Part shown: positions 2,825 to 55,639 of the stretch, in pieces
Layout: each line of letters begins with the position of its first letter
Numbering within the stretch: position 1 is the first letter of the stretch
NCBI GenBank assembly: GCA_963707915.1
Contig: OY970178.1
Coordinates: 2,976,001 to 3,040,000, forward strand
Source of the DNA: Candidatus Eiseniibacteriota bacterium
GTDB taxonomy: Bacteria; Eisenbacteria; RBG-16-71-46
Direction of reading: 5' to 3'
DNA length: 64,000 nucleotides
Program-made: the position numbers and the translations under genes
The notes under the pieces: model-generated
Told to the model about the DNA's origin: nothing
What the model saw: only the letters and a program-made list of their open reading frames with translations
Databases searched by the model: none

Positions 2825-2831
2825 CGCTCCA

Positions 2832-19998: not shown

Positions 19999-20790
19999 AT
20001 GAAGAAGATCATCCTCACCGGTATGCTGCTTTGCCTGACTGCCTCGATGGCGTTGGCCGCCGGCCTCAACTTCAACTGGAACACCGGCATGAACTGCCCG
20101 GTCGACCAGGTCGCCGGCAAGAGCCTGACGTGGGACTGCCTGGATCCGGGCGCCAACGACGGCGTGTTCTACATGATCGCTTCGGTCATGCCGAACATCG
20201 CGGTGGTCGGCTTCAACGCCATGGACGCCCGCATCGACGGCCAGTCGGCCGGCCCGATCGCTCCCTGGTGGCAGGCGTTCAACGCCGGTTCGTGCCGTGA
20301 GGCGGCCTTCACGCCTGGCGTCATCGGAACCAACCCCATCGCTCCCTGCGCTGGCACCGCGACCACGAAGCTGTGGACGACCGCTGCGTACGGCGGCATG
20401 GGTGCGTGGACGATCAACGGCAACCGGTTCTTCACGGTCATCGGCTTCGCGACGGCTGCGAACCGCGTCGCCAACCTGAACAACACGACCACCCAGTACA
20501 ACGTGTTCAACGTCCAGATGATGACGTCGAACTCGCTGGACGTCCCCGAGTCCGAGCCCGGCGCGGGCGACGGCATCGTCGCTTGCCCCGGCTGCGCCGA
20601 CGGCATGACGCTCGTGCTGAACCAGATCGGCCTGTACGGCTCCGCCGCTGAGGACCAGGTCATGCTGCCTGCCACCCTCGCGAATGCCTCCCAGTGCATC
20701 ACGTGGCAGGGCGGCGCTGGCGCTGGCGTGTGCGGTGCGACTCCTGCCCGCAACACGACCTGGGGCCAGGTCAAGAGCCTGTACCGGTAG
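19999..20790 (+). CDS. Secreted Cys-rich protein with TWGxxKxLYR C-terminus (paralog 1)
   Basis: GGAGG SD; MKKIIL signal peptide; ends ATPARNTTWGQVKSLYR. Confidence 0.88.
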   Translation: MKKIILTGMLLCLTASMALAAGLNFNWNTGMNCPVDQVAGKSLTWDCLDPGANDGVFYMIASVMPNIAVVGFNAMDARIDGQSAGPIAPWWQAFNAGSCREAAFTPGVIGTNPIAPCAGTATTKLWTTAAYGGMGAWTINGNRFFTVIGFATAANRVANLNNTTTQYNVFNVQMMTSNSLDVPESEPGAGDGIVACPGCADGMTLVLNQIGLYGSAAEDQVMLPATLANASQCITWQGGAGAGVCGATPARNTTWGQVKSLYR

Positions 20791-20810
20791 TCTTCTGCAG
20801 AACGAACACC

Positions 20811-20850
20811 ACGGCGGCCACCTCTTCGGAGGTGGCCGCCGTTTCTTCTT
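20811..20850 (+). terminator. Rho-independent terminator
   Basis: ACGGCGGCCACCTC-TTCG-GAGGTGGCCGCCGT perfect stem with UUCG loop followed by TTCTTCTT. Confidence 0.9.
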
Positions 20851-20932
20851 CCGCCGCGATGGTCGCGCCTCCCGCCCCGCTCGTCCGGCCGGCGCTTGGG
20901 GATGGCCGACGGCGTGGGCTAGTATCGGCCGC

Positions 20933-21700
20933 GTGAACGCGCTCCGTCCGAACCCGGCGCTCGCGGCGCTCCTGCTGACGGCCCTGCTGGGCTGCCTGGC
21001 CTGCCCGGCCGTGCGCGCCGACGAGGGGCTCTTCCTCACCTGGGGCGATTGCGCGCTGGGGACGTCCACGCATGACCTCTGGAGCGCCTGCGACACGAAC
21101 CTGGGTGACCAGAAGCTCTTCTGCGCCTTCCGCGTGCCCTTCGCGGCCGACAGCGTGCTGGGCCTCGAGGTGGTGGTGGACCTGCAGCACTCGGCCCCGA
21201 CCCTGCCCGCCTGGTGGCTGTTCGCCCCCGGGGGTTGCCGCGCCGGGGTCCTGCGGCCGTCCTTCGACTTCACCGGGCGGACGGCGTGCCGCGACTTCTT
21301 CGGGGGAAACGCGAGCGGGACGCTGCAGAGCTACACGGTGGGGCAGCCGGGCGGCGCGGCCAACCAGGCCCGCATCCGGACGGCGGCGGCGATGCTCCCC
21401 GGGTACGGCTACGCCACGCTCGACGCCGCCGAGACGTACTACGCGGCGATCCTGCCCATCCCCGATGACAACACGGTGGGCGTCACGGCCTGCGCCGGCT
21501 GCGCCGGGCCCGCCTGCCTGGTGCTCAACTCGATCACGGTGCGCCGCCAGCCCGGGGCGACCGGCGGCGACATCGTGCTGGCCGCGCCGGGGCCGGGCAA
21601 CGCCAACTTCGCCACCTGGCAGGGCGGCGCGGGCGCGAATTGCGCCGCCGTCCCCGTGCGATCCATGACCTGGGGCCGGATCAAGGGGCTCTACCGATGA
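20933..21700 (+). CDS. Secreted Cys-rich protein with TWGxxKxLYR C-terminus (paralog 2)
   Basis: GTG start, signal peptide ending VRA, GLFLTWGDC, PAWW...GGCR, CAGC..PACL, ends TWGRIKGLYR. Confidence 0.83.
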   Translation: MNALRPNPALAALLLTALLGCLACPAVRADEGLFLTWGDCALGTSTHDLWSACDTNLGDQKLFCAFRVPFAADSVLGLEVVVDLQHSAPTLPAWWLFAPGGCRAGVLRPSFDFTGRTACRDFFGGNASGTLQSYTVGQPGGAANQARIRTAAAMLPGYGYATLDAAETYYAAILPIPDDNTVGVTACAGCAGPACLVLNSITVRRQPGATGGDIVLAAPGPGNANFATWQGGAGANCAAVPVRSMTWGRIKGLYR

Positions 21701-22563
21701 TGACGCGTCCCGCCCGGACCCTGGGCGCGCTGGGTGCGCTCGCCACCGCCGCCGTGCTGCTCGGGGGCGCGGTCCCCGTCGCCGTGCGGTCCCCCGCGCG
21801 GTCCGCGCCCGCGGCCGTGTCCGCCGCCGGCGCTGCGGGCGCCGACTCGCTGGCCGCCGTGCGGAGCCGGGGCGACAGCCTGGGCCCGGAGTGGGCGCAG
21901 AGCGACTCGTTCGCCCCGCCGCAGCTCTACCTGGCCTGGCACGCGCCCTACGGCATGCCCGGCGCCACCGACACCATCTCCTTCGGGGCCGGCGACTCGA
22001 ACCGCGTGGACACCCTCTACATGTCCTTCGAGACCGGCCGGCACGTCGGCCGCTTCCTGGGCATGTTCGCCCGGCTCACCTTCCATCCCGCTGCCGGGGA
22101 CTCGCTCGGCTCCTACTGGAACTACGATTACGGGTGGCCGAACTACCGCAACGTGGAGATCCAGTTCGACCCCGACGGCACGTTCCCCTGCCCGCAGCCG
22201 TGGATTCGCGCCGGCGCCGGTTTCCCCGACTTCACGTTCGACCCCACCGGGGCAAGGCTGGAGTTGTTCTACCTCAACCTGAACCTGCCGAGCGTCATCC
22301 CGGTGGACGGCACCGTGCGGTACTGCTACGCGCGGGTGATGTTCCGGCAGAGACGATGGAACCTGCCGGGAGCGCGCCAGCCGGTCTGCATCGAGTGGTC
22401 GCGCGCGGTCTTCTCGGCGGGCCACGAGGATGCGGTCGCGCGCGGCGGGATCGGGCGCAGCGTCTCGGTCAACTCGCCGGACGGGAGCGTGAGCGCCCCG
22501 TACCGCCGCGCCCCCGGTCCCGTCCCCTGGTCGCCGAACGCCAACCCCCACCTCAAGCGCTGA
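21697..22563 (+). CDS. Secreted protein, distant member of the same family without the C-terminal motif
   Basis: ATG overlaps previous stop; signal peptide; LYLAW, YW.Y, PCPQPW, YCY, PVC align loosely with neighbours. Confidence 0.72.
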   Translation: MMTRPARTLGALGALATAAVLLGGAVPVAVRSPARSAPAAVSAAGAAGADSLAAVRSRGDSLGPEWAQSDSFAPPQLYLAWHAPYGMPGATDTISFGAGDSNRVDTLYMSFETGRHVGRFLGMFARLTFHPAAGDSLGSYWNYDYGWPNYRNVEIQFDPDGTFPCPQPWIRAGAGFPDFTFDPTGARLELFYLNLNLPSVIPVDGTVRYCYARVMFRQRRWNLPGARQPVCIEWSRAVFSAGHEDAVARGGIGRSVSVNSPDGSVSAPYRRAPGPVPWSPNANPHLKR

Positions 22564-22686
22564 GTCGCGTTCCGAGGATCGGGTCCGGGGGCGCGGCGCC
22601 GCCCGGGCCGCGCCGCTCGAACGAGACGCCGGGGAGCGCACCGCCCCCCGGCGTTCCCGGTCCGGGAACCATCCCCGGCGCGCGGC

Positions 22687-24516
22687 TCAGTCGTCCAGCG
22701 GGTCGGTGAGCCTGATCAGCATGACGCGCTCGGGATGGAGCACGATGCGGTGTCCCGCCCGGTGGCGGGCGATGAATTCCTTCAGCATCTTCTCCGCCTT
22801 GATGTTCTGCAACGACTCGTCCACGATCTTCTCGACCTCGTCGTAGCGGAGTTGGCGGCCGGCGTCGTGTTCGAGCTTCTGCAGCACCGCGTACTCGCCG
22901 TTCTTGATCGGCCCCTGCACCAGGACGTCGCCCGGCTTCAGCTCCTGGGCGAGGAGGGCGAAGAACGGGCCCGGCTGGTTCTCGCGCTCGAAGCGGATCG
23001 AGCCGGTGCTCCGGCCCAGCCGCAGCGAGTCCTCCCGCAGGATCGCCTCGGCCTTCTCGCCGCGGCGCAGCCGTTCGGCCAGCGAGTCGGCCGCCGCCCT
23101 CGTGGCCCGCGGGATGGCCGCGTAGCGCACGCCCTGGTAGCTCCAGAACTCGGGGAGCCGCGACTGGTAGTACTGCTGGCGCTCCGCGGGGGTGACCCAG
23201 ATCTTCGACTCGATGGAGTCCTGGAACAGGTGCCCCACCATGAGCTCCTCGCGCTTCCGCTCGATCTGGGCGATCGTCAGCGGGTCGCGGTCGACGCCGC
23301 GCTCGGTGCCGAGCTCGGCCATGTAGGGCTCGAGGACGCTGCCGTCGAGGAACGAGCGGAACGTCTCGTAGGTGTACACGTCGGGGCGGCTCAGCGGCGT
23401 CATGGCGCGGTAGACCGAGATGAAACGGCCCATCGTGAACTGCCCGTTCTTCCAGCGGGCGAGCACGCGCGCGGTGTCGGACGTGGTGAGCCGGGGGAGC
23501 CGGTCCCTCATGTCCAGCACCGGGGTGCCGTCCTCCCGGCTCTTCACCGGCACCACCCTCGCGAACTGGGACGCGGCCCACGCGATGTTCGTGCTGTCGT
23601 AGGTCAACCCGGCGCGTTCCCGCAGGATGACGCGCAGCTCCTCGACCCGTTGGCTGACCATCAGCGGGGCGAGCTGGAAGGACAGGATCTCGCGCATCCG
23701 CTCGTAGGGCGGTATCAGGATCGGCTTGCGCCCCAGCAGGCGGAACACCTGGAATCCGTTCCGGTTCAGGAACACCGTCGAGAGCTCGCCCTCCTTCAGC
23801 TCCCACAGGCGGTCGGCCTGGTCGAGCGGGACCGCGGAGCGCTGCAGCCAGCCCGTGTCGCCGTCCGGCCCGGAGTCCTGCTGCGCGACGGAGAAGCGCG
23901 CCACCGCCGCGGGCCAGACGATCCGGCCGGCCGCCAGCTCCGCGCGCGCCTGCTCGGCCTCGGCGCGCGTGGCGGTCTGGATGTGCTGGAAGTGCCGAAT
24001 GGAGCAGCTCTGCTCGTAGGCGTGCCGCAGGTCCGCTTCGGAGGCCCGGGCGGAGTCCTGCACCAGGCGCTGGAAGGTCATGTTCGAGAGGACCCGCTGC
24101 GTGTGCTCGCGCAGCGTCGCGCGGTCCTCGAAGCCGAATGGCTTGTTCACCTGGCGGGCCAGCCGGGCGAGGACCTCCTTGTCGGCCATGGTCGTGAGGA
24201 ACGTGACCCGCCCGGTGCTGTCTCCCGGCGGACGGTCCAGCGCGTAGGAGGCGAACCAGGACTGGCGGAACTCCCCGACGGTGAAGTTCCGGTCGTCCAC
24301 GCTCCCGAGCAGGGCCGTGTCGGGGAGGAACTGGCCGGTGTCGGGGACGCCGTTCACGTAGCGCAGGGGCTGGCGGGCGGCCGGAGCCGGCTGCGAATCG
24401 GCCGGGGCGCCGGGCCTCCCGGCCGCGGGCGTCCAGGGCTTCACCGCCGGGGCGGCGGCGAAGGTCGCGGTTCCGAGCAGGAGCAGGCCGAGCGTGGCGA
24501 GCGTGCGACGTCTCAT
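22687..24516 (-). CDS. SurA/PrsA-like periplasmic chaperone with parvulin-type PPIase domains
   Basis: Signal peptide; HI......A.......G..W......FS......DGDTGW; L.EGELS...GF.VF; second degenerate rotamase domain. Confidence 0.75.
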   Translation of the reverse strand: MRRRTLATLGLLLLGTATFAAAPAVKPWTPAAGRPGAPADSQPAPAARQPLRYVNGVPDTGQFLPDTALLGSVDDRNFTVGEFRQSWFASYALDRPPGDSTGRVTFLTTMADKEVLARLARQVNKPFGFEDRATLREHTQRVLSNMTFQRLVQDSARASEADLRHAYEQSCSIRHFQHIQTATRAEAEQARAELAAGRIVWPAAVARFSVAQQDSGPDGDTGWLQRSAVPLDQADRLWELKEGELSTVFLNRNGFQVFRLLGRKPILIPPYERMREILSFQLAPLMVSQRVEELRVILRERAGLTYDSTNIAWAASQFARVVPVKSREDGTPVLDMRDRLPRLTTSDTARVLARWKNGQFTMGRFISVYRAMTPLSRPDVYTYETFRSFLDGSVLEPYMAELGTERGVDRDPLTIAQIERKREELMVGHLFQDSIESKIWVTPAERQQYYQSRLPEFWSYQGVRYAAIPRATRAAADSLAERLRRGEKAEAILREDSLRLGRSTGSIRFERENQPGPFFALLAQELKPGDVLVQGPIKNGEYAVLQKLEHDAGRQLRYDEVEKIVDESLQNIKAEKMLKEFIARHRAGHRIVLHPERVMLIRLTDPLDD

Positions 24517-24628
24517 GAGCATCTCCAGTGGGCGGCCCGGAGGACCGGGCCGGGGGGGGAGTCGAAGGACACAAAAGTCTAGGGGCGGCGCCGGGGACGG
24601 TCAAACCCGCCCCCGGCGCCGCCGGGGC

Positions 24629-28878: not shown

Positions 28879-29030
28879 GGGTTCGTTCCCGTCATCCCGC
28901 GCCGTCGCGCAGGCCTGTGGGTGGAGTGGCGTGCAACCAGGGCAACAGGGGCCTCCACACTATACAACGCTGCGAGCCGACGACGACACGCGCCGGGGCG
29001 CGGGAACGCGGTCCGGGAGCCCTGCCGGCT

Positions 29031-33133: not shown

Positions 33134-33163
33134 TTGACCCTGTTCGAGACGCGTCCCTACACT
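33134..33163 (+). promoter_or_regulatory. Sigma70-like promoter of C25 gene
   Basis: TTGACC-N18-TACACT, 9 nt before ATG 33173. Confidence 0.55.
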
Positions 33164-33172
33164 GTGCGCTTC

Positions 33173-36100
33173 ATGCGAGTGATCCCGTCGTTCTTGAAGG
33201 CGGCTGCGGCGGTCGCGCTGCTGCTCCTGCCGGCCGCCGCCGCCCGCGCCCAGTCCCTGCGGGTGATCGCCACCGACCCGCGCGGCGTCACGCTGCGGCT
33301 GGAACTCCCGGGCTACCGGCTTTCGCCGCCGCTCCCCGACGGTCGCGTCGAGCTGAGCGTGTCCGGCTACGCGGTCACCAGTCTCGAGGGGCGGCCCCAC
33401 CTGCCCTACGCGCAGGCGCTGGTGGCGTTGCCGCCGGGCGCCGGGGCGACGGCCCGGATCGTGGAGCCGGGCGAGGAGGAGGTCCGCGACGGCCTGCGAC
33501 TGGCGCTGGGTGCGAAGCCGGTGATGGAAGCGGGGCCCGACGGCTTCGGTCCCTCGCCCGCGCGCGAGCCGGTGCCGCCCATCCTCGACGGGCCGTGGCC
33601 CGCCACGCCGGTCGAGCTGGGCGATCCCGTCACCGTGCGCCGCCAGCGCCTGGTGGCCGTGCAGGTCCGGCCGTTCCGCTACGACGAGGCCGCCGGCCGG
33701 CTCTGGGTGCGCCGCTCGCTCACCGTGCGCGTGGACTTCACCGGCCTGGCGCCGGGGGCCGCGGTGGCCCCCACGACCGACAGCCACTGGGAGCCCGTCT
33801 TCCGCAGCTCGCTCGCCAACTACGAGCAGGGGCGCAGTTGGCGGGCGCCGCAGCCGGCCGCGGCCGCCTCGCCGGCGGTCGGGCTGCCCGGCGACCGCGC
33901 CGCCCTGCCCGCGGCGCTGCGCGGCGTGGCCGCCTTCGACGAGAGCGAGCCCGAGGTGCGCATCAAGGTGGACTCGACCGGGGTCTACGCCTTCCCGTAC
34001 GCCGAGCTGGCGGCCCAGGGCTACCCGGCGGGGGTGCCGGTGGGCGAGGTCAGCCTGCACCGGCACGAGTACGTCGGACCGGTCGACCCCGCCTACGTCA
34101 CGATCGAGCTGCCCATCGAAGTGAACGACGGCAACGCGAACGGCGTGTTCGACGCGGGCGACGACATCGTCGTCTTCGTGCCCAACTGGGTCGAGCGCTC
34201 GGGCGTGACCTCGATGATGCAACGCGACTGGGGCGACGCCGAGGTGGTCTTCGCCACGCGGCTCGCCGGCGGCGCGGGCCTGCGCCTGCCGACCCGCGCC
34301 GGCTGGCGCGACGCGGTGAGCCCGGAGCTGCTCGCCTCGTACCCGTGGACCCAGCGCTGGGAGCGCACGCTGGTCTACTTCGCCTACCCTTCGCCGGTCG
34401 ACACCGCGATCGTGGACCGCTTCCTGTGGACCAACTACTTCACCTACTACGACCGGCCCGACACCTACCGCTTCGAGGTCAACCACCTCGATCCATCGCG
34501 CAGCGTCACCTTCCGCACCCGGCTGCAGGGGGAGAGCAACGAGCCCCACGTCATGTTCGGGCGGATCCGGAACGGCGGGGCGCAGGTCGCGACCGTGGTG
34601 GACTCGGTGGTCTGGTACACCAAGGATCCGCAGACCCTGTCGGCGACCCTGCCCGGCACGGCGGTGACCGAGGGCCTCACCAATTCCCTCGCGCTGTGGG
34701 GCAAGGGATCGACCTCGGCCCCCAGCGCGGCGACCCCGATCTGCAAGGCCGCGCTCGACTGGTTCGAGCTCACCTACTGGCGCTCCTACCGCGCGCTCGC
34801 GGGCTACCTCGCGGCCGGCAGCGGCACCGCCGCCGGGGAGTACCAGGTGCACGCCACCGGCTTCTCCTCGCCGGCGATCCGGGTCTACGACGTGACCGAC
34901 CCGGTGGGCCCGGTGCGGCTCACCCTGGACGCGAGCCACATCGTTCCGGACGGCGCCGAGTACGCGCTCGACTTCCAGGACCTCGCCGGCGCGGGCCCGC
35001 GCCGCTACGTGGTCTTCGACCGCCCGAAGACGCTGCCTTCCGCGGCCTACTCCGGGGTCACGCGCCGGCAGCTCACCGCGGCCGCCGGGGAGCTCGACTA
35101 CGTGGTCGTCGTGCCCGAGGCCTTCCTGGCCGCGGTGGACCCGCTGGTCGCGCTGCGCCAGTCGCAGGGGCTCGGCACGATCGTGGCCCCGCTCGAGTCG
35201 GTGTACGACGAATTCAACGGCGGGCGCAAGTCCCGCTGGGCCCTCAAGCGTTTCCTGCGCTACGCGACGGAGCGCTGGAACTCGCGCTTCGTCGTGCTGG
35301 TCGGCGACGGCAGCTCCGACCCGCGGAACCTGCTCCACACCGCCGGCACGGACTACGTCCCCTGCGCGCTCATCCCCGGGCCGGTCTCCTCCGGCGTGCT
35401 CGGGCTCGAGATGATCCCGGCCGACCCGTGGTACGGCTGGTGCCTGACCGATGACCCGGCGTGCACGAGCTCGAACCTGATGGAGCCCGACCTGTTCGTC
35501 GGGCGCCTGCCGGTGAACTCGCTCCAGCAGGCCCGTGACGTGGTGGCGAAGCTGGTCGCCTACGAGGGCTTCGACGCCGCCGCGATCTGGCGCCGCCGCA
35601 TGATGCTGCTCGCGGACGACTGCTACTCGGGCGTGAGCACCTTCGGTGGGGGCGGCGGGACCGGGTACTGCTTCCGCGGCTACGAGATCGCCTTCCGCCT
35701 GCTCAACCAGGCGGTGCGGGCGGTCATCGCCGATTCGTCGGGGATGAGCCTGGCGAGCCCCGAGGTGGTCGACCTGCGCTCCTACCTGACCGACCCCTCG
35801 CTCTACCAGGTCAACGGGCCCGGCGACACCTGCCGCGTCGGCCCCTCCGGCGGGCCGGCCCGGGCCGAGGAGATCCTGCGCGCCAGCTTCGACCCGGTGT
35901 TCTTCCAGAAGCTGAACGAGGGCGTGCTCTGGTGGAACTACCAGGGTCACGCGAATCCCTACGTGCTCTCCCACGAGGGCTTCTACCGCAACCAGGGGAT
36001 GACCCAGGACCGCGACAACTTCATGAACGACGGGAAGCTGTTCCTGTTCTCGGCCTTCTCCTGCCATGCGAACGCGTTCGCGGACGTGTCCGAGGGCTCC

Positions 36101-37426
36101 GCCGCGCTCGGGCCCTCGCTGGGCGAGAACCTGCTGACCCTGCCCTCGCGCGGGGCGATCGCCTCGTGGGCCTCCACCGGTTTCGAGATCGTGCCCTCGA
36201 ACAGCTCCTACCACCTGAACGTCGAGTTCGCCCGCTCGTTGTTCGTGGACCCGCCGCACGACGACGAGTTCGGGCGCGGGCTCGCGGACCGCGGCGCGCG
36301 CGTGCCGGTGGGCGAGGCCATCGCGCTGACCATGCTGAACTACCTGCCCACGGTGAGCCAGAACCCGAGCGAGCGCGGGGTCGGGCTCACCTACAACCTG
36401 CTCGGCGATCCCGCGACCCGGCTGTGGGTGGGGGCCGCGCAGATCACGGTGACCGCGAACGGCCAGCCCGTGACCAGCGGCGAGCCGGTGCGGCTGGCGA
36501 CCGGCGGCGACACGCTGCGGCTGGAGGCCGACCTGGTGTCCAACGTCGAGCTCCGCTCCATCGAGCTGCTGCGGACGGGCTGCGACGGGACGTCCGCGGT
36601 GCCGCCCGGGCAATACACGCTGACCCCGGCGTTCCCCGACACGGCGCCCGGCGGGCTGGGTGGACGACGCTATCACCTCTCGTACGCCACGACGCTCGCC
36701 ACCAGCTCGCTGCGCTACACGCTGCGGCCCACCGACCGCTACGGCGTGGCCCAGGCGTTCGACATCGTCTTCGAGTTCACGACCGAGCTGTTCGCGGGCG
36801 ACGTGCCGGTGCGGCCGAACGACGTGGTGGCCCCGGACGCGGCACTCGGCCTGCTCGTGCTCTCGCCGGGCCTGCTCGATCCCGACAGCCTGCGCCTCTC
36901 GGTGGATGGGCTGCCGCAGCCCTTCACCTCCGCGCTGGCCCGCGGCGACACGACCGGGCGCCAGTACCGCCTCGCCTGGAGCCACGCGCCGTACGCGAAG
37001 GGCGCGCACAACGTCCAGCTCGAGGTCTCGTGCGGCCAGGTCAAGGAGCACCCCTTCCGGGTCGACCCGACGTTCGCGCTGCGCGACGTGCTGGCCTTCC
37101 CGAACCCCTTCGACGACGGACAGGGCACGTGCTTCAGCTTCACGATGACCGGGCAGGCCGCGTCCGACGTGCTGGTGCGCGTCTACACGGTGAGCGGGCG
37201 ACGCGTGCGCGACCTGCGCAGCGAGCCCGGCGGCCCGCTCCAGATCGGTGCCAACCAGGTCTGCTGGGACGGACTCGATGAGGAGGGACAGAAGCTTGCG
37301 AACGGCGTCTACTTCTACAAGCTGGTGGCCCACGGCCCCTCCGGCACGTCCTCGTACGAGGGCCGGCTGGTCAAGCTCCGCCGTCCGCGAAACACCTCCG
37401 ACGCGGCCGCCGGCGCGACTCCGTAG
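33173..37426 (+). CDS. C25 (gingipain/PorU-like) cysteine peptidase with propeptide-like N-terminus and FlgD/T9SS-CTD-like C-terminus
   Basis: Signal peptide; YDEFNGG, LVGD.S.D, D.WY, VGRLPV, NYQGH (His), FSCH (Cys), YNLLGDP; FPNPF...VYTVSGRRVR...WDG.D..G..LANGVYFYKL. Confidence 0.85.
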   Translation: MRVIPSFLKAAAAVALLLLPAAAARAQSLRVIATDPRGVTLRLELPGYRLSPPLPDGRVELSVSGYAVTSLEGRPHLPYAQALVALPPGAGATARIVEPGEEEVRDGLRLALGAKPVMEAGPDGFGPSPAREPVPPILDGPWPATPVELGDPVTVRRQRLVAVQVRPFRYDEAAGRLWVRRSLTVRVDFTGLAPGAAVAPTTDSHWEPVFRSSLANYEQGRSWRAPQPAAAASPAVGLPGDRAALPAALRGVAAFDESEPEVRIKVDSTGVYAFPYAELAAQGYPAGVPVGEVSLHRHEYVGPVDPAYVTIELPIEVNDGNANGVFDAGDDIVVFVPNWVERSGVTSMMQRDWGDAEVVFATRLAGGAGLRLPTRAGWRDAVSPELLASYPWTQRWERTLVYFAYPSPVDTAIVDRFLWTNYFTYYDRPDTYRFEVNHLDPSRSVTFRTRLQGESNEPHVMFGRIRNGGAQVATVVDSVVWYTKDPQTLSATLPGTAVTEGLTNSLALWGKGSTSAPSAATPICKAALDWFELTYWRSYRALAGYLAAGSGTAAGEYQVHATGFSSPAIRVYDVTDPVGPVRLTLDASHIVPDGAEYALDFQDLAGAGPRRYVVFDRPKTLPSAAYSGVTRRQLTAAAGELDYVVVVPEAFLAAVDPLVALRQSQGLGTIVAPLESVYDEFNGGRKSRWALKRFLRYATERWNSRFVVLVGDGSSDPRNLLHTAGTDYVPCALIPGPVSSGVLGLEMIPADPWYGWCLTDDPACTSSNLMEPDLFVGRLPVNSLQQARDVVAKLVAYEGFDAAAIWRRRMMLLADDCYSGVSTFGGGGGTGYCFRGYEIAFRLLNQAVRAVIADSSGMSLASPEVVDLRSYLTDPSLYQVNGPGDTCRVGPSGGPARAEEILRASFDPVFFQKLNEGVLWWNYQGHANPYVLSHEGFYRNQGMTQDRDNFMNDGKLFLFSAFSCHANAFADVSEGSAALGPSLGENLLTLPSRGAIASWASTGFEIVPSNSSYHLNVEFARSLFVDPPHDDEFGRGLADRGARVPVGEAIALTMLNYLPTVSQNPSERGVGLTYNLLGDPATRLWVGAAQITVTANGQPVTSGEPVRLATGGDTLRLEADLVSNVELRSIELLRTGCDGTSAVPPGQYTLTPAFPDTAPGGLGGRRYHLSYATTLATSSLRYTLRPTDRYGVAQAFDIVFEFTTELFAGDVPVRPNDVVAPDAALGLLVLSPGLLDPDSLRLSVDGLPQPFTSALARGDTTGRQYRLAWSHAPYAKGAHNVQLEVSCGQVKEHPFRVDPTFALRDVLAFPNPFDDGQGTCFSFTMTGQAASDVLVRVYTVSGRRVRDLRSEPGGPLQIGANQVCWDGLDEEGQKLANGVYFYKLVAHGPSGTSSYEGRLVKLRRPRNTSDAAAGATP

Positions 37427-39425
37427 CGGGCTGCTCGCGCTGGTCGCGCTCGCGGCGCTCGCCGGGGCGCCGCCCGCCGTCGCCGCGCCGCAGCGCAGGC
37501 CCGCGCGCCCGCCGGTGCCGGCCGTGTCCGCTGCGGCGCCCGCGCCGGCCGCGCTCGCCGCGGACACGCTCGCCGATTCGCGGCTCACCGCGCTCCAGCT
37601 CATCGCCAAGGCCGAGGACCAGCGCGCGCCGGCCGGCGGCACGCTGGCGCGGTATCTCGACGATCCGGACGCCGTGCTGCGCCGCCGGGCCGCGCTCGCC
37701 GTGGGCCGGCTCCAGGACACGGCGGGCGTGGCACTGCTGCTGCCGCTGCTCGAGGACGCGGACGACGAGGTGCGGCGCGAGGCCCTGTTCGCGCTGGGCC
37801 AGATCGGGCTCGCCCACCCCGTGGGGCCGGGGCAGGCGGCGCCCGCGCGGGCGGCCGTCGAGCGGCTGGCCGGAGCCGGCGACTCGGCGACCGCCGACCT
37901 CGCGCTCGAGGCGCTGGGCAAGCTCGGGGACCGGGCGGCGACCCCGCGGCTCGTCTCGTTCCTGCGCGACGCCCCCTCGCCGCTGCTGCGCGGCGGCGCC
38001 GCCGTCGCGCTGTGGCGCCTGGCCGATTCCACCGCGCTCGCCCCGCTGCTCACCGCGCTCGACGACGCCGACGCGGGCGTGCGCTGGCGGGCGCTCTACG
38101 CGCTCGAGAAGCTCAGGAGCCCGGACCCGGTGGTGCTGCTGGCCGCCATGCACGTGGACGACGAGGATGCGCTGGTGCGCGCGTACGCCGTGCGCACGCT
38201 CGGCCGGCAGAAGTCGCCGCAGGGCACGGCCTACGTCCTGCAGAAGCTCGGCGACCCCGACGTGGGGGTGGTGGTGAACGCGATGCGCGCCCTCTCGCTC
38301 ATCGCCGACACGACCTGCGGCGCCTGCCTGCCGGCGCTGGTCCGCGCGCTCGACGCCGGGGACCCGTACGTGCGCGTGACGGCGGCCACCGCGCTGGCCG
38401 ACCGCTTCGCGTGGGTCACCGCCGACACCGCCGCGAGCCGCGCCGCGCTCGACTCGCTGGCCGCGGGTCTGGGGGATCCGGACCCGGCGACGCGCGGGGC
38501 CTGCGCGCGCGCGCTCCTCGCGCGGCGCGGCGCGGACGCGCTGGCGCCGGTCGGTGCGCTGCTCGCCGACTCCTCGGTGTACGTCCGCGTGGCGGTGCTG
38601 CAGGCGCTGGCGTTCGCGCCGGCGGCGGCGACGCCGCTGCTGGTGGAGCGGCTCGGGCCCGGCACGCCGGCGTTCGAGCGCGCCACGGCGGCCGAGGTGC
38701 TGGCCACGCTCAAGGTGGCGGCCGCGGCGCCGGGTCTGCGGAATGCGCTCGCCGACAGCTCCGTGCTGCTGGTGGCCACGGCGGCCGGCGCGCTGGCCGA
38801 GCTGGGCGACTCGGCCGCGGTGCCGGCGCTGCGGCGCGCCTACGTCTCGCACGCGGGGGACGCCGAGGCCGACGCCCGCGCGGCCCTGCTCGACGCGCTG
38901 AAGACGCTGGCGGGCAAGGCCGCCGCCGACAGCCTGGAGCGGGCGCACCCGTCCCCGCCGGCGCGGGCGGTCTACGACTCGGCCTTCTTCGCGCCGCCGG
39001 CGGCGCGCGGGGCGGTGCTGCGCACCACGAAGGGCGAGATCGAGTGGGCCTTCTACGGTGCGGAGGCGCCGCAGACGGTGAAGAACTTCGTGCGGCTCGC
39101 CGGGCGCGGCTACTTCGACGGGCTCGCCATCCACCGCGTGGTCCCCAACTTCGTGATCCAGGACGGCGATCCCACCGGCACCGGGTCCGGCGGTCCGGGC
39201 TGGACCATCCGTTGCGAGTACAACCGCCTGCGCTACGAGGCCGGCATGGTGGGCATGGCGCTCTCGGGCAAGGACACCGGCGGCAGCCAGTGGTTCATCA
39301 CCCACGCCCCGCAGCCCCACCTGAACGGGCGCTACACCATCTTCGCGCGCGTGGTGCGGGGCCAGGACGTGGTGGGCCGCATCGTCCAGGGCGACCGCGT
39401 GCTGGGCGTGGAGATCCTGCCCTAG
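37278..39425 (+). CDS. HEAT-repeat protein fused to cyclophilin-type PPIase (start uncertain)
   Basis: Many D.D..VR..A..ALG repeats; AP.TV.NF, HRVVPNFVIQ.GDP.G.G.GG, GKDTGGSQ.FI, HLNG.YT.F. Confidence 0.85.
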   Translation: MRRDRSLRTASTSTSWWPTAPPARPRTRAGWSSSAVRETPPTRPPARLRSGLLALVALAALAGAPPAVAAPQRRPARPPVPAVSAAAPAPAALAADTLADSRLTALQLIAKAEDQRAPAGGTLARYLDDPDAVLRRRAALAVGRLQDTAGVALLLPLLEDADDEVRREALFALGQIGLAHPVGPGQAAPARAAVERLAGAGDSATADLALEALGKLGDRAATPRLVSFLRDAPSPLLRGGAAVALWRLADSTALAPLLTALDDADAGVRWRALYALEKLRSPDPVVLLAAMHVDDEDALVRAYAVRTLGRQKSPQGTAYVLQKLGDPDVGVVVNAMRALSLIADTTCGACLPALVRALDAGDPYVRVTAATALADRFAWVTADTAASRAALDSLAAGLGDPDPATRGACARALLARRGADALAPVGALLADSSVYVRVAVLQALAFAPAAATPLLVERLGPGTPAFERATAAEVLATLKVAAAAPGLRNALADSSVLLVATAAGALAELGDSAAVPALRRAYVSHAGDAEADARAALLDALKTLAGKAAADSLERAHPSPPARAVYDSAFFAPPAARGAVLRTTKGEIEWAFYGAEAPQTVKNFVRLAGRGYFDGLAIHRVVPNFVIQDGDPTGTGSGGPGWTIRCEYNRLRYEAGMVGMALSGKDTGGSQWFITHAPQPHLNGRYTIFARVVRGQDVVGRIVQGDRVLGVEILP

Positions 39426-46464: not shown

Positions 46465-46465
46465 G

Positions 46466-47804: not shown

Positions 47805-48951
47805 GGGGTCCCTCCTTCCGACGTCCGCGCTGCCGCAGGGCGCGGGCCTCCTCGGTGATGTCGATCCCGGCCGGGCACCAGGTGATGCACCGGCCGCATC
47901 CGACGCAGCCCGACGAACCGAACTGCTCGTGCCAGGATCCGAGCTTGTGGGTGAGCCACTGGCGGTGGCGCGAGCGGATGGACGACCGCACGTTGCCGCC
48001 GTGGATGTAGGTGAAGTCGACCGAGTAGCAGGAGTCCCAGCGCCGGACCCGGCGGCTCAGCCCCGCCGCGAGATCGGTGAAGTCCTCGGTCGTGACGCAG
48101 AAGCAGGTCGGGCAGACCGACGTGCAGTTGCCGCACGCCAGGCAGCGCGCGGCGATCGTGTCCCAGTGCGGGTGCTCGGGGCTCTGCGCGAGCAGGGCGG
48201 GCAGCCCCTCGGTCTCGAGCGTGCGGCCCATGCCCGCGCGGGCGCGCTCCGGCGCCGCCTGCGCGGCGCGGGCCTCGGCCGCGGTGGCGGCCGCGCCCGG
48301 CAGGGCGGCGAGGAGCTCGGCGCCGCGCTCGCTGCCGGCCCCGGCCACGAACACGTGGCGTCCGTCCTCGAGCAGCTCGGTCAGGACCAGGTCGTGCCCC
48401 GAGCGGACCTCGGGGCCGGTGCCCAGCGAGGCGCAGAAGCAGGTGCGGCCCGCGCGGCCGCACTGCACCGCGATGAGCAGCGCCCCCTCGCGCCGCGCCC
48501 GGTAGACCGGGTCGGTCACGGTGCCGCCGAGCAGGACCCGGTCCTGGACCGCGATGGCCGCCAGGTCGCAGGCCCGCAGGCCGAAGAAGGCCAGCCGCAC
48601 GGGCTGCGGTGCGCGCTCCATCAGCTCCAGGGCCGGGCCCTTGCGCCGCGCGTCGAGCAGCGGGACCGTGGCGGGGTGCAGCGCTCCCTTGGGCGAGGCC
48701 GGTCCCACCGTCCAGTCGAACAGCGCCGCCCCGTCGGAGGGCGTCAGGCGGTAGCGCCCGGCCTCCTGCTCGTCGGTCCAGCCGGCGGGCAGGTCGGCGG
48801 GGGTCGAGAGCTCGTCCCAGGCGATGGCCCCGTCGCGGGCCACGGGTCCCATGACCGTGTAGCCCCGGGCGCGCAGGAGCTCGAAGAGTTGGTCCAGGTC
48901 CTTCCGCTCGATGGTCGTCTGCCGTGCTTCCGCTGCCGGGCGCTGTGGCAT
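47791..48951 (-). CDS. Group 3b hydrogenase beta (4Fe-4S) subunit
   Basis: G.R.CD, C.....[37 protein letters not shown] 48951. Confidence 0.92.
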
Positions 48952-49040
48952 GGGTCCCTCGGAGAGCGTGCGGGGCAATACACCACCCCCCACGCAGGGA
49001 CTCCTGCCCCGCGCCGGGAAGCGGCCGAATCCGAAACAAA

Positions 49041-49056
49041 GGCACAACCTGTGCCG
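49041..49056 (-). promoter_or_regulatory. Possible sigma54 promoter or palindromic operator upstream of hydrogenase operon
   Basis: Minus strand CGGCACAGGTTGTGCC = GG-N10-GC; also an inverted repeat GGCACA-N3-TGTGCC. Confidence 0.5.
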
Positions 49057-49292
49057 TTCGCCCGGCCGCCCGGCGGTTGCCCTGAAGGGGCGGCGGGCAT
49101 CCGCAAGTGGCGCTATTCCAACGGATGACGCGGGCGGAGCGCGGTGCCGGGACGCCGGAGCCGGGCGGGTCCTGACGCTCGTGGCCGCGCCGGGCGGCAG
49201 GGCATGACGGGGCTGACAGGCCGCGGGTTCGTGCTCGGTCGCTCCGGGGCGACCATCCCGAGCCCCGCCCGGTGGCGGTCGGGGTCCGCCGC

Positions 49293-51014
49293 TCAGGCCG
49301 GGTCGCTCGAGTCCGACGGGGGTTCCTCGAAGGCGCGTTCCGGCTTCACGCGCTTGCCGGTCTTCTCGGGCCGGGCGGGCCAGAACACGCTGGTCCCCGA
49401 GTCGGCGAGGATCAGGGCCAGGGCGACCGCCGGCAGGCTCGCCGCGCCGGGGTGGACGAGGTAGCGCGGCTCCCAGCGGGGGCCGAACTTGTCCTTGAAG
49501 TCGTGGACTCCCTTGAAGCTGTAGAAGCGGTTCACGTGTTCGTAGATGAATCCCAGGGCGCGCTCGACCGCCGGCGAGTCCGGGTGGCCGCCGACCAGCG
49601 CCAGGGCGCTGAGGCCGAGGTTGAAGGAGTCGTAGCCGCGTTCGCGCGCCCACCGGAACGTCTCGATGAACAGGAAGTCCATGGTGCCGCTCTCGGCGCT
49701 GCGCCGGTAGCGCATCAGGTCCAGGGTCACCTCGTTGCGCCGGTACTCGGTGACCAGGTTGGCGAATGCGCGGATGCCCCCCGCGGGGCTGATCACCGTC
49801 ATCACCGGGGCCGGCCGCAGGTAGTCCTCGTCGAACCAGCCCAGCGAGAAGCGCTTCTCGGTCCCGTGCATGGTGGCCAGCCACTCGTCGCTCACCTCGC
49901 GCAACTCGGCCATCAACGCCTCCTCGAGCGGCGGATCGAGGGCGATGGCGCGGGCCCCGGAGCGCTGGAGACGGCTCACCACGTTGCGTAGCCGCTTCAT
50001 CCCGCCGCCTTCGAGGCTGAAGGTCTTCAGGTCCACGATGGCCTCGTGCCCGATGCACAGGGCCTCCAGGCCGGCCGCCCGGTACTCGTCGAGCCGGTCG
50101 GGGAAGGTCTGGTAGAACGCCGGTCGCCAGTCGTTGCGGCCGCAGTACTCGACGAACCCGGCGATCGCCGCCGCGGCGTCCTGCGGCGGGCCGATGGGAT
50201 CGCCGAGGGACAGGGCCACGCGGTTCTTGACCACGAAGGCGACCACCGAGCCGCCCGGCGTGAAGTGGAACGACTTGTCGTCCATCAGCGCCAGGCGGGC
50301 GAGCGAGGAGCAGCCGTGGGCCTCGACGATCCGCAGGGCGCGCTCGCGCTCGGCGGCGGTCGCGGGGCGCCGCAGCAGCACGGGGCGGACGATCAGGAAC
50401 AGCGCCAGGCTGCCGCTCGCCAGGCTGACCCCGTAGATCGAGGCGGCGAACCAGCGGCCGAAGTGCGTGACCGGCTCGAGCCCGGGGTCGTAGAGCTGGG
50501 TGAACATCACCACGGTCTGGCGCAGCGCCGCCCCCAGGCCGAAGCTCACGCTGAAGTGGTGGTCGAGCAGGTAGAATCCGGTCACGCCGTAGAGCAGCGT
50601 GAACGCCAGCGCGCCCAGCAGCACCCACAGGCCCTGCCGCACCGAGGGCGGATCCGAGCGGGCCTGGAAGTGGTGCTGCTGCGTGAACAGGAAGGCCGCC
50701 AGCATGGCGGCCACGGCCGCCTCCTCGAAGTCGAGGCCCTTGACGACGTGGCTCGCCACCGAGACCACCAGCACGGCCTCGGTCAGCAGCCAGGCCGCGC
50801 GCTTGCGCCGCGCGAGGTTCACGGCCAGCAGCAGGAGCACGAACCCCGCCATCGCCGCGGTGAAGTGCCCGCCATGGCGCAGGAGCCGCGGGACCCAGGG
50901 CTCGACCAGCCGGAGCCGCGTCAGCTCCGAGGGCGTCACGCCCGACAGCAGGTTGATGAACCCCATCGCGGCGGTGAGCGCCGCCGCGGTCCGGACCGCG
51001 CCCCGGCCTCTCAC
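49293..51014 (-). CDS. MprF/LysX-like aminoacyl-phosphatidylglycerol synthase (TM plus catalytic domain)
   Basis: L.RRKRAAW, KGLD.EEA, DK, GDPIG, G.EA..DL..F, EK.FS.G, DLMR, LGL..L, FK.KF.P.WEPRY. Confidence 0.9.
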   Translation of the reverse strand: MRGRGAVRTAAALTAAMGFINLLSGVTPSELTRLRLVEPWVPRLLRHGGHFTAAMAGFVLLLLAVNLARRKRAAWLLTEAVLVVSVASHVVKGLDFEEAAVAAMLAAFLFTQQHHFQARSDPPSVRQGLWVLLGALAFTLLYGVTGFYLLDHHFSVSFGLGAALRQTVVMFTQLYDPGLEPVTHFGRWFAASIYGVSLASGSLALFLIVRPVLLRRPATAAERERALRIVEAHGCSSLARLALMDDKSFHFTPGGSVVAFVVKNRVALSLGDPIGPPQDAAAAIAGFVEYCGRNDWRPAFYQTFPDRLDEYRAAGLEALCIGHEAIVDLKTFSLEGGGMKRLRNVVSRLQRSGARAIALDPPLEEALMAELREVSDEWLATMHGTEKRFSLGWFDEDYLRPAPVMTVISPAGGIRAFANLVTEYRRNEVTLDLMRYRRSAESGTMDFLFIETFRWARERGYDSFNLGLSALALVGGHPDSPAVERALGFIYEHVNRFYSFKGVHDFKDKFGPRWEPRYLVHPGAASLPAVALALILADSGTSVFWPARPEKTGKRVKPERAFEEPPSDSSDPA

Positions 51015-52018
51015 CGTGCCTCCGGGCGCAGCGAGCGGAGCCGCCGCAGCAGCAGGAACCCGACGAAGGTCGGCAGCCAGAAGGTCAGCCCGCGGAAGGA
51101 CAGCACGACCAGCGCGGCCGGCTCGGGGTGCACGCCGAGCGAGGTGTAGACCAGCGTCATCACGCCCTCGACCACGCCGATCCCCTGCGGGACCGGCGAG
51201 AGCAGCCAGCTCAGGATGCCGAAGGCGTAGCCGGCCACCACCACGCCCGGCCGCAGCGCCTCGCGGAAGGCGAGGAACAGCGCGCCGAGGCTCGCCACGT
51301 CGAGCGCGGTCATGGCGAGCGCGAGCCCGAGCAGGCGCAGCGGTCCCCACGGCCGCGCGCGCAGCGCCTGCGCGACCTCGACGAACTCGCCGGCGGTGCG
51401 CGCGGCCCACTCCGGGCCGAGCGGGCCGCGCAGCCGGACGGCCCGGGCGACGGCGTCGGTGGCGGCCGCCGTCCCGCGCAGCAGGGCGTGCAGCGCGCGC
51501 GGCAGCCGGAGCCCGAGCGCCAGCAGCAGGAGCAGGGCGGCGATCATCGCCCCGAGCGCGGCCGCGCCCCAGACCTCCAGGGGCTGAAGCTCGTGGCGCG
51601 CGGCCAGGTAGGGGAGGCTCCCGGCCAGCACCAGCGCCAGCGCCGTGAGGATGGCGGTCATCGCCAGCATCAGGCCGGCCGCGGCGCGGGCCGGCGACTC
51701 GCCGCGGCGCGCGGCGTCGTCCATGAACAGGGCGGCGCCGGCCGCCCCGCCGCTCGGCACCACCACGTTGGCGAACATCGAGCCGAGCAGCACGGCGAGG
51801 ACCTCGCGGAAGCGGCTGCGCACGCCCACGACGCCGAAGGCCGCCTGGCAGAGCGCGGCGTAGACCAGGTAGTAGACGCCCTGCGCGGCGGCCGCCGCCG
51901 CCACCCAGGGCCAGCGCCCCAGGGCCAGCGTGCGGGCCAGCTCGTCCAGCTCGGTGCGGCGCGCGATGATCACCCAGAGGAAGGCGACCACGGCGAGCGG
52001 GAGGATCCAGCGGCGCAT
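51011..52018 (-). CDS. MprF flippase-like membrane protein (LPG synthase TM family)
   Basis: Multi-TM; P.GG, PQGIGVVE, FR..TFWLP; coupled to synthase gene. Confidence 0.85.
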   Translation of the reverse strand: MRRWILPLAVVAFLWVIIARRTELDELARTLALGRWPWVAAAAAAQGVYYLVYAALCQAAFGVVGVRSRFREVLAVLLGSMFANVVVPSGGAAGAALFMDDAARRGESPARAAAGLMLAMTAILTALALVLAGSLPYLAARHELQPLEVWGAAALGAMIAALLLLLALGLRLPRALHALLRGTAAATDAVARAVRLRGPLGPEWAARTAGEFVEVAQALRARPWGPLRLLGLALAMTALDVASLGALFLAFREALRPGVVVAGYAFGILSWLLSPVPQGIGVVEGVMTLVYTSLGVHPEPAALVVLSFRGLTFWLPTFVGFLLLRRLRSLRPEAR

Positions 52019-52040
52019 GTCCCTGCCTTTCGGTACCCGG

Positions 52041-53080
<1,040 letters not shown>

Positions 53081-53084
<4 letters not shown>

Positions 53085-54614
53085 GGCGCGCCGGCTCCCC
53101 GCCGGCCGGTCATGTGGAGGCCCAGCGTGCGCTCGTCGGTCTCGGCCGGCCGGGTCTCGTGCACCAGACGCCCCTCGTACATCACGAAGACGCGGTCGGA
53201 GAGCGCGAGGATCTCGGACAGCTCGGAGGAGACCAGCAGCACCGCGCGGCCGGCGTCGCGCTCGCGCAGCAGGCGCTGATGGAGGAAGGAGATGGCCCCG
53301 AGGTCCACGCCGCGCGTCGGGTGGGCGGCCAGCACCACCGCCGCGCCGCGGCTCAGCTCGCGCGCGGCGATGAGCTTCTGCTGGTTGCCGCCCGAGAGCT
53401 GGCGCGCTTGCCGCCCGGGCTCGGGCGGACGCACGTCGTACTCGGCCAGCACGCCGGCGGCCCGCGCCTCGAGCGTGCCGCGCGTCAGCAACGGCCCCTG
53501 GCCCGAGTCCGGCTCGCGCTGGCGGCCCAGCACCAGGTTCTCGGCCAGCGTCATCTCCGGCACCAGGCCGCGGCGCAGCCGGTCGCTGGGGATGTGGGCG
53601 AGGCCCGCGGCCGCGCGCCCGCGCACCGTGAGCGCCGTGCAGTCCCGGTCGGCGATGAAGATCTCCCCGTGCTGGGCGCGCCGCAGTCCCGCCAGGCACT
53701 CGACCAGTTCGTGCTGACCGTTCCCCTCGACGCCGGCCAGGCCGACGATCTCGCCGGCGTGGACCTCGAACGAGGCGTGCTTCACCGCCTGCAGCCCGCG
53801 GTCGTCGAGCACGTCGAGCAGGCTCACGCGCAGCAGCGGGTCGCGCTCCTCGTGGTGGGCGCGGGCGCGCAGCGCCGGGATGCTGTGCCCCACCATGAGC
53901 TCCGCCATGCGCTCGACCGGGTGCTCCGCGATCGCGCCGCCGCCGACCACGCGCCCGCCCCGCATCACCGTGACGCGCTGCGCCAGCGCGGTCACCTCGG
54001 CCAGCTTGTGGGTGATGAGCACGATGCTCGTGCCCTGCGCCTGCAGCCTCCGCAGCACCTCGAAGAGGTCGTCCACCTCCTGGGGGGTGAGCACGGCCGT
54101 CGGCTCGTCGAGGATGAGCACCCGCGCGCCGTGGTAGAGCGCCTTGAGGATCTCGACCCGCTGCTGCGCCCCGACCGAGAGCGTCGCGATGCGCGCGGCC
54201 GGGTCCACCGGCAGGCCGTGGCGGGCGGCCAGTGCGGCCACCTCGCGCTCGGCCGCCGCCGGGCTGTAGCTCCCGAAGCCGCCGAGCGGCTCGCGGCCCA
54301 GCGTGACGTTCTCCGCCACGGTGAGCGGGTCCACCAGCATGAAGTGCTGGTGCACCATGCCGAGACCGAGCCGCATCGCCGCTGCCGGGCTGTGGATGCG
54401 CGCCACGCGGCCGCCGACTTCGATGGTCCCCGCAGTCGGGCTGGATGAGGCCGTAGAGGACGCGCATCAGCGTGCTCTTGCCCGCCCCGTTCTCGCCCAC
54501 GAGGCCGTGGATCTCGCCGGGCGCGAGTTCGAGGGAGACGTCGTCGTTGGCCACCACCGGCCCGAAGCGGCGGGTGATGTGGCGCAGCGAGATGGCGGGA
54601 GCGGACTCGGTCAT
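53081..54614 (-). pseudogene. Nucleoside ABC ATPase (two NBDs) with 1-nt frameshift near 54430; possibly an assembly error
   Basis: Walker [10 protein letters not shown] in one frame; [28 protein letters not shown] in another; junction GAC-T-GCG-GGG-ACC. Confidence 0.85.
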
Positions 54615-54781
54615 GGAGCGGGGAGCGTAGCCGGGGTGGCGGGAGGCGTCCAGCGCGTGCCGGCGCGCGGGCGCCGCGCCGCGCGCCGGCGGCCGGCGGG
54701 AGAAGACCGGCGGCCTGCGGGGTAGGAGGAAGGGGCGCGCCCGGGCTGCCGCATGCCCGGCGGCGCGCGGCCGGCGTGACC

Positions 54782-54790
54782 TGCTATAGT
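54782..54790 (+). promoter_or_regulatory. Extended -10 promoter of the isolated TWG-tail gene
   Basis: TGcTATAGT about 75 nt before TTG 54866. Confidence 0.45.
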
Positions 54791-54865
54791 CGTGCGTCGT
54801 CGGATTCCGGTGTCCGCCCCGCCGGGTGAACCAGTCGCCGTGTCCGTTCTCCAGGAGTCGCTCGT

Positions 54866-55639
54866 TTGAGATCCTTGACGCTGAGGCTCGCCCTCTGCCT
54901 GGTGCTGATCCTGCCGGGCGCCACGGTCCGCGCCGCCGGCCTCAACCTGGCATGGGACAAGTGTCTCTCCGACGGCGGCTCCCTCACGAAGCTGTTCGCC
55001 TGCAACAGCAACATGGGCTACGCCGACGTCATCGGCTCGTTCGTCCCGATGCAGCCGCACCCGCGGTTCGTGGGCATCGAGGTGAAGCTGGACGTGCAGT
55101 CGCAGTCGAAGGAGTTGCCGGCCTGGTGGCAGTTCTACAACGCCGGCTCCTGCCGCGAGAACGCCTACGAGCTGGTGACCAACCTCCGGGACCTGCCGCA
55201 GCAGTCGTGCGATGACGCCTTCGACGGGAACTGGTGGGGCGGGGTGGGCTTCTACGCGACCCCCGACCACCCGGTGTCCACCTACCAGGGCGGGCCCAAC
55301 ACGGCGCGCCTGGTGCTGGGCTTCGCCCGGATGTACTCGAAGAGCCTGGCGCCCGGAACCGAGTACTACGCCTTCCGCCTGCGCCTCCAGTACGAATCGA
55401 GCACCGGTGGCGGCGCGTGCGCGGGATGCAGCACGCCGGCCTGCCTGACGCTGGCCGAGGTGGCGGTCTACGACGAGTCGGCGGAGCCGCTCGACGGCAA
55501 CCTGTCGCACCCGCCCGACCCGGAGATCATCGCCCAGCAGGCGCAGAACATGATGATCAGCTGGCAGGACAGCGGCGGCAACTGCCAGTCCAAGGTGCAG
55601 AACAAGACCTGGGGCCAGCTGAAGAGCCTGTATCGCTAG
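54866..55639 (+). CDS. Secreted Cys-rich protein with TWGxxKxLYR C-terminus (paralog 3)
   Basis: AGGAG SD, TTG start, signal peptide, [15 protein letters not shown]...GSCR, CAGC.TPACL, ends [12 protein letters not shown]. Confidence 0.87.

Follow-up and report, generated by a model that had tools for sequence, protein, structure and literature searches.

A C-terminal TWG tail as a candidate docking tag on small exported proteins of Candidatus Eisenbacteria

In a stretch of 64,000 nucleotides from a Candidatus Eiseniibacteriota genome (assembly GCA_963707915.1, contig OY970178.1, positions 2,976,001 to 3,040,000; hereafter the window), three exported Cys-rich proteins end in the same short tail of the type TWGxxKxLYR, and the locus raises the question of whether this tail belongs to their fold or is a separate signal, and of what would read it. 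The window lies within a single 3.62-Mb contig. A sequence-only reading of it had taken the three proteins (19999-20790, 20933-21700, and 54866-55639) to be paralogues and their tail to be a dedicated export, cleavage, or anchoring signal. The three open reading frames are real, at these coordinates and with the tails reported, and they are true paralogues: a profile of their core detects all three, with E-values of 4e-71, 2e-48, and 1e-51, respectively, and also two further tailed paralogues elsewhere in the genome. Named homologues come from Candidatus Eisenbacteria. The tail-less gene 21697-22563, which had been counted as a fourth relative, goes undetected with the family profile at E<0.01 and reaches a probability of 2.2% (E 0.021) in profile comparison; it is a remote relative at best.

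The tail is true of the Cys-rich paralogues, as claimed, and is not confined to them. When all six frames of the genome were searched for W[GS]x[LIVM]K, 27 of the 52 matches sat exactly four residues before a stop, which places the tail above chance. A position matrix seeded on 26 stop-proximal matches found 29 segments, 28 at a stop, one a single residue before it, and none internal, with the consensus [VT]P[AT]xxx[TS]WGx[LIV]K[SAT]xYR-stop. All but one of the 29 are full exported-type proteins, the remaining one being an 81-amino-acid segment without a leader. These 28 proteins fall into 19 sequence groups, and their domain matches include NHL, LTD (lamin-tail), CBM20, and cohesin, with weak matches to dockerin and reeler. 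A hydrophobic leader starts all 25 tailed proteins outside the window, and a four-part leader test was passed by 21 of them versus 406 of 2,545 called genes, gene calls and leader test alike coming from crude home-made scripts.

Within its carriers the tail behaves as a module of its own. It starts with a junction tripeptide, [VT][PASG][TVA], and its Trp-Gly, Lys, and Tyr are near-invariant at fixed spacing. Identity to the window protein, measured over 20 orthologues, is 80% in the last ten residues and 22% in the body. In the AlphaFold model of the first paralogue (mean predicted local distance difference test score, pLDDT, 88.9), the beta-sandwich core scores ~90 and the final helix, residues 254-262, ~55. 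That the tail is kept in 74/74 near-length homologues is what would be expected were it an integral folded element of one Cys-rich family. However, 8/8 longer homologues contain two to five copies of this core each, and all lack the tail; three of these carry PF13860, four end in a domain similar by eye, and one is partial. A tail-less longer core protein of this kind, with a C-terminal domain of the type IX secretion system (T9SS) type, sits in this very genome. The 19 unrelated groups in one genome, the tail-less core repeats, and a helix modelled separately at low confidence together rule out an integral element, to which we give practically no chance; confinement to one family was also what the sequence-only reading had named as fatal to its proposal.

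Two tailed loci depart from the usual form. One tailed protein (genome 256482-257477, minus strand) has a Gly/Ala-rich hydrophobic helical end and lacks the junction tripeptide, unlike the other carriers. At genome 450348-452548, an insertion element with terminal inverted repeats, presumably IS3-like, separates an NHL-repeat gene from its detached TWG tail, and the right end of the element is duplicated over 50 bases.

The search by pattern and profile that had been proposed as a check extends this picture from unrelated domains in one genome to the phylum and beyond. A DNA pattern of tail plus stop was found in 116/121 phylum genomes, with ~2,000 matches, and its reversed control gave 0. A scan of species genomes reached at least 128 stretches, under titles including Eisenbacteria, Krumholzibacteriota, Latescibacterota, Poribacteria, and Zixibacteria; a true stop ends 129/129 distinct pattern matches, even though the pattern also allowed TGG. 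Of 1.84 billion sequences searched with a 21-position tail profile, 1,876 representatives matched at E<=0.001. Pfam and NCBIfam models each match at most 1/120 tails and none matches the window proteins searched, so that no existing family model in these libraries explains it. A published description of the tail was not found among listings and abstract openings, with subscription papers and supplements outside the search. We conclude that the tail is almost certainly a real, undescribed, and portable envelope tag. At least 1,876 protein clusters (50% identity) and ~1% of the proteins of this genome (28 of ~2,900 called genes) carry a tag absent from family libraries, and its profile would mark small envelope or surface proteins in several uncultured phyla.

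The phylum of the Zixibacteria-titled genome shows no such expansion: 19/41 genomes have one to three loose matches, several of them by chance. The 12 matches fetched there (L343-L354) are one single-copy exported protein of ~140 amino acids ending TWGK[IV]KALF[KR], with an identical tail in 12/12 and diverging bodies. In 11 of the 12 the adjoining gene is, we assume, rex. As a minimal case, this protein could help to identify what reads the tail.

The best overall explanation, which we hold tentatively and at slightly less than an even chance, is that the tail is a portable docking helix, neither a structural part of its carrier nor, probably, a cleaved signal. The carriers have Sec-type leaders and are small, mostly single-domain binding modules, with the tail at the position that the T9SS C-terminal domain occupies in larger proteins. 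Sec would export the carrier first; the 10-residue helix, with its conserved Trp, Ile/Leu, Lys, and Tyr, would then bind noncovalently to one conserved outer-envelope receptor, which would retain or display the carrier at the outer envelope. In Eisenbacteria and their kin, this receptor could be a module consisting of an orphan outer-membrane barrel of 600-700 amino acids and two NTF2-like lipoproteins.

Copies of the motif away from the C terminus bear on the choice between docking and cleavage. Among the top 150 profile hits, two to five tandem or internal copies occur in 11 members of one lipoprotein-like family and in one short repeat protein. In our reading this family is NTF2-like, with a weak DUF4440 match, and the strict tail ends 19/44 of its sampled members. 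On the other side of the scale, a looser pattern gave 116 nonterminal matches versus the ~2,000 terminal ones, and 27 of 30 sampled nonterminal copies have only 2-13 further residues; the C-terminal position is therefore strongly preferred, as in sorting signals, which weighs against docking. The remaining three of the 30 are a four-tandem-copy lipoprotein, a motif right after the leader, and an apparent lost stop. Because the motif also occurs in tandem, internally, N-terminally, and on lipoproteins, we favor noncovalent docking over cleavage, by a small margin of belief. What stands of the dedicated signal originally proposed is thus a portable tag on exported proteins with unrelated domains; export and cleavage fit these other copies less well than docking does. 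A lipoprotein with four tandem TWG helices lies at L209:898-1698, and a protein with the motif directly behind its leader peptide at L207:1394-2062.

A partial T9SS is a close rival to the barrel module as reader. The tail would then be a miniature T9SS signal for small cargo, its helix read by a PorV-type shuttle or SprA and its junction tripeptide cut by a C25 peptidase, which would release the cargo or link it to a surface glycolipid; we regard this as possible, though unlikely. The genome does hold SprA, four PorV-like and four C25 genes, a C25-PorV gene pair, and 72 FlgD-Ig matches, so that SprA, PorV, and PorU-type genes are present together with the tail (for PorV and C25, in this genome only), and SprA is found in 32/35 tail-rich genomes, including weak matches in 2,232-2,246-amino-acid frames of three Poribacteria-type genomes. 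Like the T9SS C-terminal domain (type A; FlgD_ig PF13860-type in this phylum), the tail is C-terminal on Sec-exported carriers, occurs many times per genome in the same genomes, and alternates with that domain on the same core. Its junction also resembles [VTLA][GADSP]V, which is found before 58/87 T9SS-type domains versus an 18% background. Yet the available part of PMC11285876 describes the T9SS signal as a seven-strand sandwich, 67-108 residues long, that must be folded; the tail, at 17 residues, is a helix-bearing peptide with no FlgD_ig or Por_Secre_tail match. The 98 proteins of this genome with a T9SS-type C-terminal domain have a median length of 668 amino acids, against only 178-382 for tail carriers, and the TWG tail is on 0/98 of them. 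Tandem, internal, N-terminal, and lipoprotein copies set the tail further apart and would make little sense if it were cleaved; Pro stands in the middle of half of the junctions (64/128); and in the Eisenbacteria sample a T9SS-type domain follows 0/30 nonterminal copies. Finally, GldM_1st has no match in the genome and GldK a partial match far below cut-off, and remote forms of either could escape; this T9SS may lack the known motor. One of the four C25 genes lies in the window (Table 1) and is followed by a HEAT-repeat cyclophilin (37515-39425).

Our preference for the barrel module as receptor rests on the lipoprotein whose gene comes immediately after that of the barrel: it ends in the same helix, and copying of this docking element may have given rise to the tag. 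The NTF2-like lipoprotein family follows an exported protein of 600-700 amino acids with an aromatic end strand in 6/12 fetched neighborhoods. Known families give this protein only subthreshold OMP_b-brl and PorP matches, PDB sequences give no match to the barrel or lipoprotein profiles, and its Atlas neighbors are barrel proteins, with a weak recognition score. The barrel occupies a single locus in 114/121 phylum genomes (63/63 genera), with a family lipoprotein directly downstream in 54/54 loci with room for one. Of 51 distinct downstream lipoproteins, 45 end in [TS][WFLMYI][GST], 13 of them in TWG or SWG, and one matches the tail profile with a probability of 74% (E 3e-5). In two genomes of the Zixibacteria-titled phylum, the C terminus of the downstream lipoprotein is SWxxFKxxYR-stop, which aligns with the tail without a shift. 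Of the genomes of this phylum, 3/3 with the tailed protein and 0/2 without it have the barrel, small numbers both.

Several observations weigh against this assignment. The pattern reached 39 genomes, at least two of which repeat members of the phylum sample; leaving out the Polyangiaceae, Sulfurimonas, and Elusimicrobia titles (one or two matches each, with neither SprA nor barrel) and G138 (two matches) gave the 35 tail-rich genomes. Kin genomes are not independent. The barrel is in 30/35 of these genomes versus 32/35 for SprA, which is also in 114/121 phylum genomes and thus co-occurs with the tail at least as well. The barrel was not found in the tail-bearing Poribacteria-type genomes G132 (a single 5.7-Mb chromosome), G163, and G164, nor in G133 and G170; one of the three Poribacteria-type genomes is titled so and two are assigned from synteny, and their lipoprotein matches are generic, with neither barrel nor tail. 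Both barrel and SprA persist in five phylum genomes that lack a strict tail, so that neither profile discriminates. Phylogenetic profiling, a further check suggested by the sequence-only reading, spoke against exosortase (below) and did not discriminate for the other two candidates. In addition, the helix of the first lipoprotein has drifted to a TFG type in the window's own family, and the lipoprotein helix might do no more than pack against its own domain. The barrel module is a candidate reader whose claim we regard as doubtful. Unlikelier again is the fuller picture, in which a plugless barrel and two NTF2-like lipoproteins would be an undescribed export or display machine of uncultured phyla on the FCB (Fibrobacteres-Chlorobi-Bacteroidetes) side, reading a helix that evolved on its own lipoprotein and was copied onto thousands of small proteins, and serving as a second small-cargo route beside SprA that displays cohesin-dockerin assemblies on a diderm surface. 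The operon merits study whether or not its barrel reads the tail. A barrel reader, if true, would be a new envelope machine; a SprA/PorV reader, if true, would give the T9SS a second, peptide-sized class of signal.

It is also conceivable, though improbable, that no protein reads the tail and that a short basic amphipathic helix binds a membrane lipid or envelope polymer directly, much as membrane-targeting helices or S-layer homology (SLH) modules do. The 10-residue segment has a mean hydrophobicity of ~-0.1 and a net charge of ~+2.3, and its hydrophobic moment peaks at 110 degrees; tandem copies would add avidity, and cohesin plus tail mirrors the cohesin plus SLH of anchoring scaffoldins (PMC8063739, in the part available). 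The moment is equally high at 180 degrees, a point against a docking helix. The constant spacing of near-invariant Trp-Gly, Lys, and Tyr, and an identical tail on 12/12 single-copy proteins with divergent bodies, suggest instead a shaped binding site, and proteins that are already lipid-anchored carry the tail as well.

Known C-terminal signals offer a further comparison. Some tails read PVEP[ST]TW, which we take to resemble PEP-CTERM starts, and the genome has one exosortase, as a shortened PEP-CTERM signal processed by that enzyme would require. We consider this very improbable. Exosortase (PF09721) is present in 89/121 genomes and absent from family f2 (0/5 genomes, with 32-42 tails each), from G001 (100% complete, 34 tails), and from G074 and G112; PF07589 matches 0/120 tails; and the exosortase of this genome sits in a polysaccharide-export locus beside the existence of a true PEP-CTERM protein. 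Tail-rich genomes without the enzyme rule exosortase out as reader, bar a remote one escaping PF09721. The exosortase locus (genome 326843-344287) and the single PEP-CTERM gene (2596448-2596744) form a separate sorting system. The tripartite signals set out in the available part of bioRxiv 10.1101/2023.06.07.544157, where "TWG" occurs 0 times, are C-terminal, many per genome, and near-invariant in signature, with a leader and a transmembrane segment; the tail shares all of these features except the hydrophobic transmembrane segment. It is thus like LPXTG/sortase, PEP-CTERM/exosortase, GlyGly-CTERM/rhombosortase, and MYXO-CTERM/myxosortase signals in being short, C-terminal, and numerous, with a near-invariant signature, a leader peptide, and a basic end, and unlike them in having its signature inside a helix, no transmembrane segment, and no co-occurrence with exosortase. 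The earlier statement that the tail has no transmembrane helix is borne out. We see the tail as one of the C-terminal address and anchor tags; it would be categorically new if the barrel reads it, which we think unlikely.

The sequence-only reading overlooked the gene directly upstream of the first paralogue, whose product combines an immunoglobulin (Ig)-like domain with a dockerin-like module. In its model (pLDDT 84; helices 163-174 and 194-204), the module overlays dockerin 2vn5_B over 56/56 residues at rmsd (root-mean-square deviation) 2.2 and Z 4.7, and conserved Asp residues stand at 148, 165, 185, and 196; as modelled, it appears to have a dockerin fold with two calcium-loop-helix repeats. 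Among 20 relatives, Pfam Big_1 matches nine and Dockerin_1 (PF00404; best E 0.0036) three, at weak E-values; PF00404 does not match the window protein. At positions 10, 11, and 14, the two repeats share the same residue in 41/60 comparisons within proteins versus 15.3 between proteins, a value reached by 0/10,000 shuffles when rows are treated as unrelated. According to the available part of PMC8063739, positions 10 and 11 determine specificity, and this symmetry is the basis of dual binding. At 30 loci of such relatives, a TWG-tailed gene lies directly downstream in 20 (16 by core profile); of the other ten, five end too soon, three are paralogue arrays, and two have dockerin proteins with a tail of their own.

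The putative partner fold lies in the tailed neighbor. The best structural matches to the core of the first paralogue are cohesins (2vo8_A, Z 8.8, rmsd 3.3, 127 aligned; 2w1n_A, Z 8.1), and many cohesins are among its top 21, with pilin and adhesin folds reaching Z 7.7; the modelled core is consistent with a cohesin-type beta-sandwich. This likeness is moderate (Foldseek E ~5e-3 beside that Z 8.8), which tells against the assignment. Foldseek gave no match at E<=0.001 for either model, the weak rows for the dockerin-like protein including X-dockerin chains, and PF00963 (cohesin) has no match on the core. Among Atlas clusters that have a family, the closest is Cohesin (16% of members), at 0.84, which is no more than a lead. 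We predict that the pair probably binds as cohesin and dockerin. The first paralogue would then act as an anchoring scaffoldin in a two-gene unit, docked at the envelope by its tail and holding, with its cohesin-like domain, the tail-less Ig-dockerin product of the upstream gene. Anchoring scaffoldins of the cellulosome (cohesin plus SLH, with X-dockerin as binding partner; PDB 2b59, 5g5d) are alike in joining a cohesin-like sandwich to a C-terminal attachment element, and the neighboring Ig-plus-dockerin protein with its symmetrical repeats extends the likeness. Here, in contrast, the host is diderm, the TWG helix replaces SLH, no enzyme is attached to the dockerin partner, and the cohesin-like domain is of a disulfide-type, Cys-rich kind outside PF00963, with binding as a prediction only. 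The reader of the tail is now approachable through a candidate receptor operon, a one-protein minimal case, and a cohesin-dockerin pair that can be expressed without culturing the organism.

Table 1. Features of the window and of the candidate receptor locus (window coordinates unless marked otherwise).
Feature	Position	Strand	Remark
Sigma-70-like promoter consensus (10/12)	18985..19014	+	Upstream of dockerin-like gene; consensus match only
Exported protein, 219 amino acids: Ig-like domain (~24-148) and dockerin-like module (~144-208)	19185..19844	+	No TWG tail, no T9SS C-terminal domain
Weaker promoter-like site (9/12)	19851..19879	+	Between dockerin-like and cohesin-like genes; consensus match only
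Cys-rich paralogue, exported, 263 amino acids, with cohesin-like beta-sandwich (~20-240) and TWG tail	19999..20790	+	
TWG tail of 19999-20790	20737..20787	+	17 codons: junction tripeptide, short linker, low-confidence helix
Intrinsic-terminator-like hairpin, 14 pairs	20811..20842	+	Closes dockerin-like and cohesin-like pair
Second Cys-rich cohesin-like paralogue with TWG tail	20933..21700 (tail 21647-21697)	+	
Exported-type protein, 288 amino acids, without tail	21697..22563	+	Remote kinship at best
C25 peptidase of the gingipain type, ending in a FlgD-Ig domain (PorU-like architecture)	33134..37426	+	Context
Third Cys-rich cohesin-like paralogue with TWG tail	54866..55639 (tail 55586-55636)	+	
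Orphan outer-membrane barrel and two lipoproteins, operon	Genome 355448-359021 (L249:8452-12022)	-	Barrel at L249:9908-12022

Between 18800 and 22750, there are two promoter-like sites versus 0.2 +/- 0.4 in shuffles, and the terminator-like hairpins do not exceed shuffles (2 versus 1.9). In two RNA runs, 0.05 of the words were present, and their contigs, short pieces of related organisms and mostly 85-95% alike, were uninformative on transcription. Just upstream of the dockerin pair lies tRNA-Val (18795-18870), with tRNA-His, -Arg, and -Pro and a tmRNA at 1778-3191, and ~2 kb upstream are four pilin or pseudopilin genes (13656-17100; GspH-like, N-methyl motifs, PilX_N). An exported rotamase-domain (SurA/PpiD-like) protein follows the cluster directly on the opposite strand (22687-24522, minus). 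Finally, at 52041-54614 on the minus strand, a sugar ABC ATPase seems to be split over two frames near 54376-54614, by a frameshift or an assembly error.

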